A stretch of DNA of 11,624 nt from Enterobacteria phage P4, in the sequence record NC_001609.1. One strand, given 5' to 3'. Below the pieces are notes generated by a model, which saw only the letters and a program-made list of their open reading frames with translations, ran no database searches and was not told where the DNA came from. Shown here one piece after another: positions 247 through 3,926 of this stretch (its first letter is position 1; each line of letters opens with the position of its first letter). The translations under genes were made by a program, and so were the position numbers.

Positions 247-648
247 ATGCTGAATCATGTATATGGATTAATTGGCGTTGTTGGGACCATAATCACTATT
301 GCTACTAGCTTCATCCGCAACCAAGATATTTCACAATGGTTGCTCGTTTGTTCTGGATGGTTAGCTGCTTTACTTATTGGATGGTTTACACACAGAACGA
401 TTAAAGCAATTAGCAACAACCACACGAATGTTATAAAAAGTAATATGGAGGTAATCAACAGTCATAATGAATCCAATCAAAACTTGATGGCTGAAAACAA
501 AGAATTGATTAAAGAACTTGCAAGAACTTCAGAACAGAAAGAGAAGATGGAAAGTATAGCTGCTTATCTTGCTACTCAGAACCCCCAAATTAACGCTATG
601 CCAAGAACAGCAAGCCGACCAGAAAATATCGATTCGGAGGCTAATTAA
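247..648 (+). CDS. gop: Gop, small two-transmembrane protein (host-killing in absence of Beta, per P4 literature)
   Basis: 133-aa ORF with ATG at 247 and only one in-frame Met near the start. Two hydrophobic helices (about residues 5-23 and 31-47) precede a charged, coiled-coil-like C-terminus. Stop TAA 646-648 sits 2 nt before the next ATG. Naming rests on recalled P4 order gop-beta-cII left of int. Confidence 0.65.
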   Translation: MLNHVYGLIGVVGTIITIATSFIRNQDISQWLLVCSGWLAALLIGWFTHRTIKAISNNHTNVIKSNMEVINSHNESNQNLMAENKELIKELARTSEQKEKMESIAAYLATQNPQINAMPRTASRPENIDSEAN

Positions 649-650
649 AT

Positions 651-1718
651 ATGAAAGTATATTTTGAAAATTACTCATACTATCCAGCCCTAAGAACACG
701 ATCAGCAGAAATGACCGGACTGAATAATTTATCATATGAGAATAAGAAAAAAATATTACCTTTAATTTCTTTGGGGAAATGGCCTCGCTCGGAAGAAATA
801 CAGGTATCGTTAGATAAAAGTTTAGAAGTGATGAGTAATCTCCCATTTATTTTGGATGTCACAAAGGATAATTCTCATCATTGCGCGTCAAGCTTCGAAC
901 TACTCTCTCCTGAGAATGGTTTTAAAAACTGGATAGAGTTTTGTTCCAGAAATGATAATATTATTCCAGTAGTCCAGATGCCGGATTCAGCAAAACTTAG
1001 AGATATATCTATCCAAGCCAGGGTTTTAGAGGAACTTAAAGGTTCAATTGCATTTAGAATTAGAAATCTAAATACAGACATTAATAAAACCCTGACGTCA
1101 CTAGTATCGATGAACTCTCCAGAAAATGCCATAGTTTTCATAGATTTGGGCTACATTAGAGGGAATGTATCTGCTATAACAGCTGCAGCAATAAATTCGA
1201 TTAATCAGATTAGAACTGAGATTCCTGAAGCCATAATTAGTGTGCTAGCAACAAGCTTCCCTAGTTCAGTTACAAATTTTTGCCGTGAAAATGGACAGTC
1301 CGGATATATTGATGTTATTGAGAGAGAATTGCATCAAAATATTGGTGGAAGTGATGTCGCTATTTATGGCGATCATGGTTCAATTCATTCAGTAGTGTAT
1401 GACAACATAATTGGGCGATATGTTCCTAGAATTGATATAGCGTTAAATGATTCATGGTATTTCGAGCGCCGCCCTGGGATGAATAAAGAAGGGTTCATTG
1501 AAGCTGCGAAATCAATTTTGGCAGAGTATCCACATTATCAAAGGGAGGACTCTTGGGGAGCTGCAATGATAAGAAATGCTGCTATAGGGGATATAGCAGG
1601 TATGGGAAGTCCAGCTAAATGGATTGCTGTTCGAGTGAATCTACACTTAAATAAGCAAATTGAGCTATCTGAAGCTCTACAGTATGGCTTTGATCATGAT
1701 GAGGAAGATCTTATCTAA
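651..1718 (+). CDS. beta: Beta protein (Beta_protein family), protects from Gop
   Basis: 355-aa ORF, ATG at 651 with GGAGG at 636-640, translationally coupled to gop. Clean single frame through an AT-rich region. Assigned as P4 beta by position and size; family assignment is from memory. Confidence 0.7.
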   Translation: MKVYFENYSYYPALRTRSAEMTGLNNLSYENKKKILPLISLGKWPRSEEIQVSLDKSLEVMSNLPFILDVTKDNSHHCASSFELLSPENGFKNWIEFCSRNDNIIPVVQMPDSAKLRDISIQARVLEELKGSIAFRIRNLNTDINKTLTSLVSMNSPENAIVFIDLGYIRGNVSAITAAAINSINQIRTEIPEAIISVLATSFPSSVTNFCRENGQSGYIDVIERELHQNIGGSDVAIYGDHGSIHSVVYDNIIGRYVPRIDIALNDSWYFERRPGMNKEGFIEAAKSILAEYPHYQREDSWGAAMIRNAAIGDIAGMGSPAKWIAVRVNLHLNKQIELSEALQYGFDHDEEDLI

Positions 1719-1749
1719 TAAAAAACTAGGGAAGGTTAGCCTTCCCTAG
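1718..1749 (-). terminator. Rho-independent terminator of leftward cII transcript, convergent with the gop-beta 3' end
   Basis: Perfect hairpin CTAGGGAAGG-TTAG-CCTTCCCTAG at 1726-1749. On the minus strand it is followed by a U-run (complement of A-run 1719-1725). It overlaps the cII stop codon (1746-1748) and lies immediately after the beta stop (1716-1718). Confidence 0.7.
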
Positions 1750-2540
1750 CCCACAACCCTTTTAAGTACTTTTTCCGGAATATAGGAAACATCATCGCCA
1801 TATTTCCTAACTATAGAGTCAACATCAACCTTATGGTATTCATTTAAAGATTTCTCCGAACAAGCCTTAAACTCAAACTTAACCAAAGAATTATTCCTTC
1901 TTTTAGCTTTGCTCAATAAGGCAAGATCGTTTATAGATATTTCTTGATTACCATGGAGTCTAGATAAAAAATCATTAGATGTCGCATGATACCTATTTTT
2001 AATAGATGTAATGACAAATTCTCTAATCTTGTTTAAAGATAACTTAGATGCCAAAACCTCAAGACAATCCCTATGTAGTTCATTTGAAAATGTAATTCCA
2101 TACTGATTAAGCAGATCTTTAAGCTCAGACTTAAGCAAAAAACCCAAATAAACAAATTTATTTAAGCGAGAGCAAACCCTTCCTTTTTGAATTATTTTAA
2201 AGCGTACGCTACTATTATTAGATTGAAATTCTACAACGCCAACATCTGATGAAACCCGTTTAGATACTTCACTGGTAAATTTTGGCGCGCACACAATTGT
2301 AACTTTTTCGAAGCTAGATTTAAAAATTTTTAACTGACCATCCAAGCGCTTAAGAGAGTCAAAATCGCTTTTTATTTCAAAAGCTTGTAGGCTTCCATTG
2401 GCAATAGCCAAATCAGCTCTTCTGCTCCAGTTAGCAACAACCATTTCATTAATGATCGTTGCATCACTAAGCATGCCTTTTTTATATAACCATTCAATTA
2501 GGGCTATTTTAACTTCCTGCTCTCGCAATAACTCAGCCAT
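1746..2540 (-). CDS. cII: cII protein, possible PD-(D/E)xK-type nuclease fold (inference)
   Basis: ORF track gives 1746..2555 with a GTG start and no visible SD; the first ATG is at 2540-2538 (MAELLREQ...), used here as the start. The N-terminal region contains E...RADL(x12)FEIK, resembling a D-(D/E)xK motif. Naming by position as the third nonessential P4 gene, transcribed leftward. Confidence 0.6.
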   Translation of the reverse strand: MAELLREQEVKIALIEWLYKKGMLSDATIINEMVVANWSRRADLAIANGSLQAFEIKSDFDSLKRLDGQLKIFKSSFEKVTIVCAPKFTSEVSKRVSSDVGVVEFQSNNSSVRFKIIQKGRVCSRLNKFVYLGFLLKSELKDLLNQYGITFSNELHRDCLEVLASKLSLNKIREFVITSIKNRYHATSNDFLSRLHGNQEISINDLALLSKAKRRNNSLVKFEFKACSEKSLNEYHKVDVDSIVRKYGDDVSYIPEKVLKRVVG

Positions 2541-2606
2541 GTTAATCACACTCACTTCACGTTGATTTTTATTATAGCAACTAACAATTAAAAACTCCAG
2601 ATTATG

Positions 2607-3926
2607 TTACTTAACACTCATTTTAAAAATCAACCAATAACTATTTTTATTTAAGTATTTCTTTGTATTTTGAATAATCATAAGGCTAATATATTTATTA
2701 CGGTTCATATCCAAATAATCAGCCCACCACTGCATCATTAAACGCCGCTCATCCAAATGCTCGGAGGTATGGATATATGCCGCACGTACATTATTACGCT
2801 CTGAGTGGCTCAGTTGCCTCTCTATCGCGTCATCACTCCATAACCCCGACTCCCCCAACGCACCACGCGCCATAGTCCTAAACCCATGCCCACACACCTC
2901 GGTTTTAGTATCATAGCCCATCGCACGCAATGCGCTGTTTACCGTGTTTTCACTCATAACCTTAGTTGCGTCATGATCCCCCGGAAAAAGCAGCTCTTTA
3001 TCACCACTAATCTGCTTTAACTGGTTTAATAAAATCATCGCCTGTCGACTAAGCGGAACGATATGTTCCTCTTTCATCTTCATGCCTCGGTACGAATAAC
3101 GCACACCTTTAATTTCTTCTCGCTTTGCAGGTATACGCCAAAGAGATTTATCGAAGTCGAATTCATCCCAACGTGCGAAACGTAATTCACTGGAACGCAC
3201 AAAAGTTAGCAAGGAAAGCTTGACCGCAATCCGTGTCATTACACGGCCACGATATGCAGCAAGACGTGCAAGAAACTCAGGGAATCGGCTAGAAGGTAAA
3301 GCAGGGTAATGTCGCGCTTTGGTTGTCGATAGCGCACCAGCCATATCGCTGGCTGGATTTGAGTCGATGTAATCGTTCTGTACGGCATAACGCATAATGG
3401 CTGTGACGCGCTGTTGCAGGCGCTGAGCGACATCGTGTTTGCCACTGGCATCAACTTTTTTAATCGGGGCTAACAGGTGGCTGGTTTTAAGCTGCCGAAT
3501 GTCGGACGAACCGATATGAGGGAATATATAAAGCTCAAGATAGCGAAGAACGCGCGATCGATGGTCTTCACTCCAGCGCTTGTTACTGGCATGCCATTCT
3601 CGGGCGATAGCTTCAAAAGTATATGCCCCCGAATTCTCGGCCCGAGCTTCTTTTTGTACGACTTTTGGGTCTATGCCCTGTACTAAAAGCTTTTTAGCTT
3701 CATCGCGTTTTGCTCTTGCCTGAGCAAGCGTCACAGTAGGCCAAACACCAAACGCAAGACGATCCTCTTTTTTGTCAGAGGGACGTCTGTATTTCATGCG
3801 CCAGTATTTGGAACCTTTGGCCGAAACCTCAAGATACAAACCACCACCATCGGCCATTTTGTAGGTTTTGTCTTTTGGCTTTGCGGTCTCGACCTGTCTG
3901 GCGTTGAGCTTCATTTGGGGGCACAT
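2607..3926 (-). CDS. int: P4-type tyrosine integrase (site-specific recombinase, phage integrase family)
   Basis: 439-aa ORF. N-terminus MKLNARQVETAKPKDKTYKMADGGGLYLEV is the typical P4-integrase arm-binding region; catalytic signature HGFRT...RAAYIHT near the C-terminus. First ATG at 3926, second at 3914. The C-terminal tail runs into AT-rich sequence. Confidence 0.9.
   Translation of the reverse strand: MCPQMKLNARQVETAKPKDKTYKMADGGGLYLEVSAKGSKYWRMKYRRPSDKKEDRLAFGVWPTVTLAQARAKRDEAKKLLVQGIDPKVVQKEARAENSGAYTFEAIAREWHASNKRWSEDHRSRVLRYLELYIFPHIGSSDIRQLKTSHLLAPIKKVDASGKHDVAQRLQQRVTAIMRYAVQNDYIDSNPASDMAGALSTTKARHYPALPSSRFPEFLARLAAYRGRVMTRIAVKLSLLTFVRSSELRFARWDEFDFDKSLWRIPAKREEIKGVRYSYRGMKMKEEHIVPLSRQAMILLNQLKQISGDKELLFPGDHDATKVMSENTVNSALRAMGYDTKTEVCGHGFRTMARGALGESGLWSDDAIERQLSHSERNNVRAAYIHTSEHLDERRLMMQWWADYLDMNRNKYISLMIIQNTKKYLNKNSYWLIFKMSVK

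Follow-up and report, generated by a model that had tools for sequence, protein, structure and literature searches.

Introduction

The gop-beta-cII locus of the satellite phage P4 is the prototype of Gop-Beta-cII, a validated anti-phage system whose cII component is without function in annotation libraries. In Rousset et al. (2022; PMC9122126), gop-beta-cII is reported to protect against lambda and P1, gop and beta are read as a toxin–antitoxin pair acting by abortive infection, and Ghisotti (1990) is cited for the toxicity of Gop without Beta. The phage gene orf184 triggers toxicity and killing by gop-beta-cII (Silas et al., bioRxiv 10.1101/2023.04.06.535777). Published accounts of the system describe gop/beta as toxin–antitoxin-like and give cII no fold or activity, and no separate contribution of cII to protection was found in the account of Rousset et al. 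In the present study, we analysed a window of 11,624 bp, which is the complete P4 genome (NC_001609.1), focusing on cII, which, as judged from a predicted structure and from motif conservation, almost certainly has a PD-(D/E)xK (restriction-endonuclease-like) fold, and which forms a constant unit with Beta across bacteria.

PD-lambda-2 is related to this system through its C component, a Beta homologue; the PADLOC model PD-Lambda-2_C matches P4 Beta at 8e-14. The Beta-like PD-lambda-2C is needed for defence, not for toxin neutralisation (Vassallo et al., 2022; PMC9519451). As defined, PD-lambda-2 has no cII-like component. Convergent restriction–modification and toxin–antitoxin pairs provide a further likeness, their linked genes facing each other with tight or overlapping 3' ends, as those of Beta and cII do, and such an arrangement allows transcriptional interference or antisense control. 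However, Beta-cII differs from those pairs in having no methyltransferase or antitoxin fold, the partner being a predicted TIM barrel.

Over bases 1-2640, the window agrees at 100% identity with GenBank M27748 ('Bacteriophage P4 gop, beta, and cII genes'), and its int region corresponds to X05947. The genes gop, beta, and cII lie adjacent to one another within 247-2540, and all three PADLOC models of Gop-Beta-cII match there at 5e-70 to 8e-188, the model for cII (cll) at 3.5e-113.

Results

Predicted fold of cII

The coding sequence of cII and the elements recognised in its product are listed below, with residues counted from the ATG codon (the numbering of the initial annotation of this DNA is higher by 5).

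1746..2540, minus strand: cII coding sequence (GenBank M27748), 264 amino acids, ATG start, stop codon TAG at 1748-1746
2181..2540, minus strand: predicted N-terminal PD-(D/E)xK (restriction-endonuclease-like) domain, approximately residues 1-120
2370..2447, minus strand: candidate catalytic-type motif E32...R41-x-D43-x11-E55-I-K57 (EMVVANWSRRADLAIANGSLQAFEIK)
2322..2336, minus strand: Q69-x3-F73 (Q-x-x-x-Y/F) motif, on the helix after strand 3
2043..2144, minus strand: SAP-like helix–extended loop–helix, approximately residues 133-166 (GFLLKSELKDLLNQYGITFSNELHRDCLEVLASK), putative DNA-binding module
1749..1973, minus strand: C-terminal extension, approximately residues 190-264, present only in P4-type long forms

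The AlphaFold2 model of cII, built on an alignment, was confident (mean predicted local distance difference test score 88, predicted template modelling score 0.76), with low confidence at residues 219-230. In this model, a helix (residues 7-20) is followed by three strands (28-35, 40-47, and 51-57), a helix (66-76), a strand (79-84), a further helix (86-95), and two further strands (101-108 and 111-118), which together contain the alpha-beta-beta-beta-alpha-beta core of restriction-endonuclease-like enzymes. D43 falls on strand 2 and both E55 and K57 on strand 3, and the strand register would place E32, D43, and E55 next to one another across three adjacent antiparallel strands. A Foldseek search with the model returned 3dnx at E=1.2e-4, and the closest structural neighbours were NucS, XisH, restriction enzymes, and SfsA, with Can2, Card1, and Cdn1 also among the neighbours. 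The initial annotation had read a PD-(D/E)xK-like motif in the N-terminal third of cII and had named structure prediction as a test of it; the prediction returned a nuclease-like fold with the motif residues, by register, on adjacent strands, and the D, E, and K residues proved to be conserved active-site positions among 134 representatives of the family.

The SAP-like motif that follows the core corresponds to helices 137-146 and 157-164 of the model. A Pasteurella homologue of cII matches the Pfam SAP family (PF02037) at 4.2e-7, whereas P4 cII does not. SAP motifs are typically DNA-binding, and by analogy the motif would favour DNA as the ligand of cII. Most members of the family are 190-230 amino acids long, the C-terminal extension being confined to the P4-type proteins.

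Several points weigh against the assignment of the fold. By sequence, neither P4 cII nor any of 36 relatives matched the Pfam PDDEXK clan at E<=1; scans of these proteins against Pfam gave only SAP, DUF5787, and noise, and P4 cII itself had no Pfam match. A profile search of the PDB sequences with cII found nothing meaningful, nor did the corresponding search with Beta. Furthermore, the clustering of E32, D43, E55, and K57 is deduced from strand register rather than from coordinates, and the PD-(D/E)xK assignment rests on the predicted structure together with motif conservation.

Conservation of the candidate active site

The peptide RADLAIANGSLQAFEIKSD is present in cII, with the spacing D43-x11-E55-x-K57 and with E32 upstream. 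The initial annotation had given the motif as E...D(x12)EIK; the acidic and lysine residues are there, but the spacing is 11 rather than 12. The pattern D-x9-13-[DE]-x-K occurs in 53% of shuffled cII sequences, and in 19% together with a suitably placed upstream glutamate. The bare pattern is not beyond chance and was not counted as evidence, the weight being placed on conservation and fold. This frequency, along with the lack of a Pfam PDDEXK match, would agree with the motif being a chance match in a protein unrelated to nucleases. We consider that explanation most improbable, and it is effectively refuted by the predicted fold, the structural neighbours, and the conservation in 134 representatives.

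In 36 diverse homologues, E32, R41, D43, E55, K57, S58, D61, L63, R65, L66, Q69, and F77 are invariant. Because 80 genome loci had been retrieved with the pattern EIKS..D.L, which makes the conservation of E55 and K57 in them partly circular, an exhaustive profile search without pattern seeding was used instead. It yielded 5,686 cluster representatives at E<=1e-3 and 4,294 at E<=1e-10. Among 134 new representatives taken from this search (median identity to P4 cII 33%), R41, D43, E55, K57, D61, R65, and Q69 were each present in 134/134, E32 was present in 133, the remaining one having a gap there, and residue 73 was tyrosine or phenylalanine in 130. The Q-x-x-x-Y/F motif is presumably that of RecB/NucS-type nucleases, which we take as a lead only. 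The succession K-S...Q-x-x-x-Y/F and the structural match to NucS suggest, by analogy, that cII belongs to a RecB/NucS-like branch. At the sequence level, no relationship between cII and NucS/RecB-type nucleases was detected. The fold assignment pinpoints D43, E55, and K57 as well as a candidate DNA-binding motif.

The cII family and its named relatives

P4 cII is the founding member of a very large bacterial family (sce7726/PF26915; approximately 5,700 clusters). It scores 151.3 bits against the NCBIfam sce7726 family (NF033832; cut-off 70) over residues 11-189, at 2.7e-44, and PF26915 (Phage_P4_cII), which is named after it, is precomputed on all homologues. PHROGs lists gop, beta, and cII as 'unknown function', and the names in NCBIfam, PADLOC, and Pfam imply no function. 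Literature searches on PF26915, Phage_P4_cII, P4 cII, and sce7726 found no functional statement, and no statement on the fold or activity of cII was found in the literature searched. The nuclease-fold assignment and the concept of a Beta-cII core thus go beyond the published descriptions that we could find.

The protein of known structure that resembles cII, 3dnx (SPO1766), belongs to DUF1052/PF06319, a PD-(D/E)XK family; the likeness is structural only, at 13% identity, and PF06319 matched none of the 36 cII relatives at E<=1. DUF1052 proteins consist of a single domain of approximately 146 amino acids, are mostly alphaproteobacterial, and occur in another gene context, with no SAP motif and no Beta partner. 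Steczkiewicz et al. (2012) list DUF1052/PF06319 as family 92 in their PD-(D/E)XK catalogue, and P4 cII is absent from the main text of that paper. NucS/EndoMS has an N-terminal DNA-binding and dimerisation domain and acts in mismatch repair with the sliding clamp; in cII, by contrast, the SAP-like motif is C-terminal and the partner is a TIM barrel, both as predicted.

The Beta-cII gene pair across bacteria

In P4, the partners of cII are encoded on the opposite strand.

247-648, plus strand: gop (PADLOC gop, 4.8e-70), small hydrophobic protein, lineage-specific third component
651-1718, plus strand: beta (PADLOC beta, 8.2e-188), predicted TIM barrel, near-obligate convergent partner of cII

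The convergence of cII with gop-beta described in the initial annotation is borne out by these positions, the 3' ends of beta and cII being separated by a 27-bp gap. The gene that directly follows cII, encoded on the other strand, is Beta (PF14350) in prophages of Burkholderia, Pasteurella, and Pseudomonas, in metagenomic contigs, and in 80 species-level genomes spanning Proteobacteria, Firmicutes, Chloroflexi, Actinobacteria, Planctomycetes, Verrucomicrobia, Acidobacteria, and bacteria of the candidate phyla radiation. Across approximately 85 loci, cII and Beta are convergent wherever Beta is found; with an iterated Beta profile, Beta was absent in only three loci and fragmentary in three. 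The spacing between the 3' ends is +27 bp in P4, +12 in Burkholderia, and 0 in Pasteurella, and in most other loci the genes overlap, with -44, -35, and -4 commonest and -143 as the extreme. These overlaps cover the poorly conserved C-terminal tails of both proteins. The gap in P4 is an outlier in the family, and it is uncommon for partner genes to be held so strictly in a convergent, overlapping layout.

What lies upstream of Beta differs between loci (L007-L009, L017-L023, L028, L038-L087). The gene there encodes a small hydrophobic Gop-like protein (the P4 type), a CapP-like M78 peptidase, a helix–turn–helix–M78 fusion of approximately 430 amino acids resembling PD-lambda-2B, a protein with a cytidine-deaminase domain (L028, 5127-6647), or an unannotated protein of 200-246 amino acids. 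The third gene is missing in approximately 14 loci and in the Escherichia phage Rac-SA53 (L096; KU052037.1, 15680-17315), where a 192-amino-acid 'CII phage-like protein' is convergent to 'beta' with a 41-bp overlap, no co-directional third gene is present, and an IS1 element and hok/mok adjoin. Because the third gene varies or is missing, the constant functional unit is Beta and cII, not Gop and Beta.

In many distant cII-Beta loci, the gene upstream of Beta encodes the helix–turn–helix–M78 peptidase fusion like PD-lambda-2B. Judging from gene content, this swappable third component points to a larger family that would include both Gop-Beta-cII and PD-lambda-2. The constancy of Beta and cII and the presence of that core in PD-lambda-2-like loci may unite these two separately named systems, and they shift the choice of informative experiments.

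In NCBIfam, sce7725 is the namesake neighbour of sce7726. It matched only the first approximately 43 residues of a Firmicute Beta (L029, 4029-5093, minus strand; E=0.0015), and did not match P4 Beta. It appears that sce7725 is a partner family of its own, related and sharing the N-terminal Y-x-P-x-L-R-x-R-x-x-E motif.

Proposed role of cII

Considering these results, we propose the following scenario for the Gop-Beta-cII system. cII may be a metal-dependent PD-(D/E)xK nuclease in which E32, D43, E55, and K57, along with Q69xxxY/F, would form the metal-binding and catalytic set, with a SAP-like DNA-binding motif after the nuclease core. Together with the TIM-barrel Beta, it would make up a conserved two-gene core and would most likely be the DNA-binding and DNA-cutting subunit of Gop-Beta-cII abortive infection and defence. 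In P4-like satellites, Gop would be a lineage-specific small hydrophobic toxin restrained by Beta, and the cII transcription unit would face the gop-beta operon. The analysis itself bears on the fold, the motif conservation, the gene linkage, and the hairpin with its conservation; that cII has nuclease activity, that it acts on DNA, and how it shares tasks with Beta and Gop are inferred. We consider it reasonably likely that cII is an active DNA nuclease acting as the targeting subunit. The suggestion in the initial annotation that cII is the nucleic-acid-targeting component of the module is plausible in the light of the SAP-like motif and of the two-gene Beta-cII loci without a third gene.

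The variable third genes are effector-like, encoding hydrophobic or membrane proteins and a deaminase. Other modular defence systems combine a variable effector with a constant sensor, and by analogy cII may be a sensor or regulator instead of a killing component. The name cII is said to come from a clear-plaque (lysogeny) phenotype in the work of Ghisotti et al. of 1990, which would fit restraint better than killing. On these grounds, cII could be a nuclease-fold DNA sensor or regulator that senses, and perhaps nicks, a feature of phage DNA or a trigger protein and with Beta releases an effector, namely Gop in P4 and hydrophobic proteins, deaminase, or peptidase-controlled toxins elsewhere. 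The toxicity of Gop alone without Beta (Ghisotti, 1990, as cited in PMC9122126) and the requirement of PD-lambda-2C for defence and not for toxin control (PMC9519451) are consistent with a sensor, as is the constancy of the Beta-cII pair beside a variable, effector-like third gene. However, in the two-gene loci the effector must be Beta or cII itself, and the complete conservation of the catalytic residues throughout the family indicates that catalysis, not binding alone, is selected. A sensing role for cII is the main alternative, though in our estimation the less likely one.

The substrate of a cII nuclease could also be RNA (tRNA or mRNA) instead of DNA, given that the PD-(D/E)xK fold includes RNA-cleaving members, that gop has reportedly been tied to the host argU tRNA, and that the module is rich in AGA/AGG codons. 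Can2, Card1, and Cdn1, which are among the structural neighbours of cII, have reportedly been found to cut RNA as well as DNA. However, the closest neighbours (NucS, XisH, restriction enzymes, and SfsA) act on or bind DNA, the usual ligand of SAP motifs is DNA, and the codon bias simply tracks the low guanine-plus-cytosine (GC) content of the cassette (0.34-0.37). Action on RNA is therefore quite improbable, and we retain DNA as the presumed substrate.

Start codon and probable promoter of cII

The int gene precedes cII on the same strand, with a 66-bp spacer between them.

2607-3926, minus strand: int
2571..2579, minus strand: candidate extended -10 element TGCTATAAT, in the 66-bp int-cII spacer

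The longest cII open reading frame, 1746..2555 on the minus strand, has a GTG start and 269 amino acids. The N-termini of cII homologues align with the ATG at 2540, and TGCTATAAT or TGCTATACT is found approximately 25-35 nt upstream of the cII ATG in five of six diverged P4-like loci. The extended -10 element TGCTATAAT is thus, on this conservation, likely the cII promoter; in P4 it was overlooked by a simple -35/-10 scan. The GTG at 2555 would sit only approximately 8 nt from the predicted transcription start. Because the homologue N-termini align at the ATG and the conserved -10 element lies upstream of it, ATG 2540 is, from sequence comparison, the better start. The frame and strand given in the initial annotation are therefore retained, whereas its start is replaced, 2555 being an upstream in-frame GTG.

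Terminator at the cII 3' end

The gap between cII and beta in P4 is occupied by a hairpin.

1716..1752, minus strand: intrinsic terminator of cII, stem 1726-1735/1740-1749, loop 1736-1739, U-tract 1725-1716

The stem has 10 perfect base pairs and a 4-nt loop, is extendable to 13 pairs (1723-1752), and has a predicted free energy of -20.8 kcal/mol (z -2.65). The 5' arm of the stem, as transcribed with cII, includes the stop codon TAG (1748-1746). The perfect hairpin at 1726-1749 overlapping the cII stop codon, which the initial annotation had described, is thus found where it had been placed. On the cII strand, TTTTTTATTA lies 3' of the hairpin, and read on the minus strand the element consists of a stem of 10-13 bp, the 4-nt loop, and then UUUUUUAUUA. 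Beyond the stem, the plus (beta) strand carries no U-tract, so that the P4 terminator is essentially one-way. It is already known, the GenBank record of 1990 carrying a 'pot. rho-independent transcription termination signal of cII' at 1720-1749.

Five more P4-like satellites (L091-L095), whose cII is 52-76% identical to that of P4, have the same order of int, cII, and convergent beta-gop, with gaps of 16-27 bp. In each gap, a GC-rich hairpin without mismatches covers or adjoins the cII stop codon; over the six P4-like loci, four different stem sequences were counted. The hairpins of the five are formed by different stems (GGGAAGG/CCUUCCC, GGGAGGC/GCCUCCC, GGGAGGGG/CCCCUCCC, AAGGGAGG/CCUCCCUU, and AAGGAGGCU/AGCCUCCUU), and a U-tract follows most of these hairpins on the cII strand. 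Comparable hairpins elsewhere are rare, at 1-9 per P4-like locus with duplicate calls of one hairpin included. Because the structure is kept through different stems and such hairpins are rare elsewhere in the loci, the hairpin is under selection in P4-like satellites, as far as a small sample of six loci, considered without a formal covariation statistic, indicates. Covariation in Escherichia coli genomes was uninformative, all 39 copies being at least 99% identical. The cII stop codon is embedded in the stem or abuts it at each of the six P4-like loci, with L095 having it in the loop.

With its predicted promoter and its terminator, cII in P4-like elements would be a self-contained transcription unit. 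The initial annotation had cII insulated by its own terminator, and this agrees with the hairpin and U-tract of P4-like loci but not with most of the wider family. Because the genes overlap at their 3' ends in most of the family, leaving no intergenic room, insulation appears to be a feature of the P4 lineage and not a requirement of the family, and since cII and Beta genes overlap, their convergent transcripts must, as read from gene positions, overlap there as well. That terminator strength tunes Beta levels and hence Gop toxicity, as had also been put forward, is speculation.

In a sharper form of this idea, the main role of the hairpin would be regulatory coupling instead of simple insulation: a ribosome finishing cII would prevent the hairpin from forming, so that efficiently translated cII transcripts would extend antisense into beta and lower the amount of Beta. 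The stop codon inside or abutting the stem in all six P4-like loci would fit such a coupling, and the convergent overlap in most of the family makes an antisense interaction between cII and Beta probably ancient. However, terminators overlapping stop codons are common, spacers of 16-27 bp force proximity, and selection for efficient termination as such would account just as well for the structure-preserving stem changes. We consider the coupling unlikely. An equally tentative and unlikely broader view would hold that Beta-cII is an ancient pan-bacterial immune core, composed of a TIM-barrel enzyme and a SAP-bearing PD-(D/E)xK nuclease, whose convergent overlap is kept for mutual control of their ratio by antisense or interference, as a transcription-level toxin–antitoxin switch. 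On this view, Gop-Beta-cII and PD-lambda-2 would represent two lineages of one superfamily that added different effectors or regulators, and in P4-like elements a terminator with the stop codon embedded in it, its efficiency dependent on cII translation, would have taken the place of the overlap.

Composition and context of the cassette

Beyond int, the window contains the gene for a 777-amino-acid primase and then the remaining P4 genes. The GC content of gop-beta-cII (247-2540) is 0.34-0.37, compared to 0.61 in the primase gene, and AGA/AGG account for 12/19 arginine codons in beta, 11/16 in cII, and 3/5 in gop, compared to 3/53 in alpha. Low GC content and these rare codons fit a horizontally acquired cassette. 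Historically, gop has reportedly been tied to the host argU tRNA, to which the AGA/AGG richness may relate.

In Pasteurella and Pseudomonas lambdoid prophages (L004-L006), the cII/beta/gop-like module adjoins a gene for a cI-type (Peptidase_S24) repressor. The rexAB genes of lambda occupy the same position, beside cI, and the placement is typical of prophage-borne defence cargo. The small proteins Gop and relatives (L002, 7887-8363; L006, 8005-8448) each combine one or two hydrophobic segments, as counted by a simple scan, with a polar or coiled-coil tail, which would fit Gop as a membrane-acting effector. Sub-threshold Pfam matches of the group included a SMODS-associated 4TM effector and a Cap17-like N-terminal domain. 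The gop-like copy in L006 is uncalled in the source annotation.

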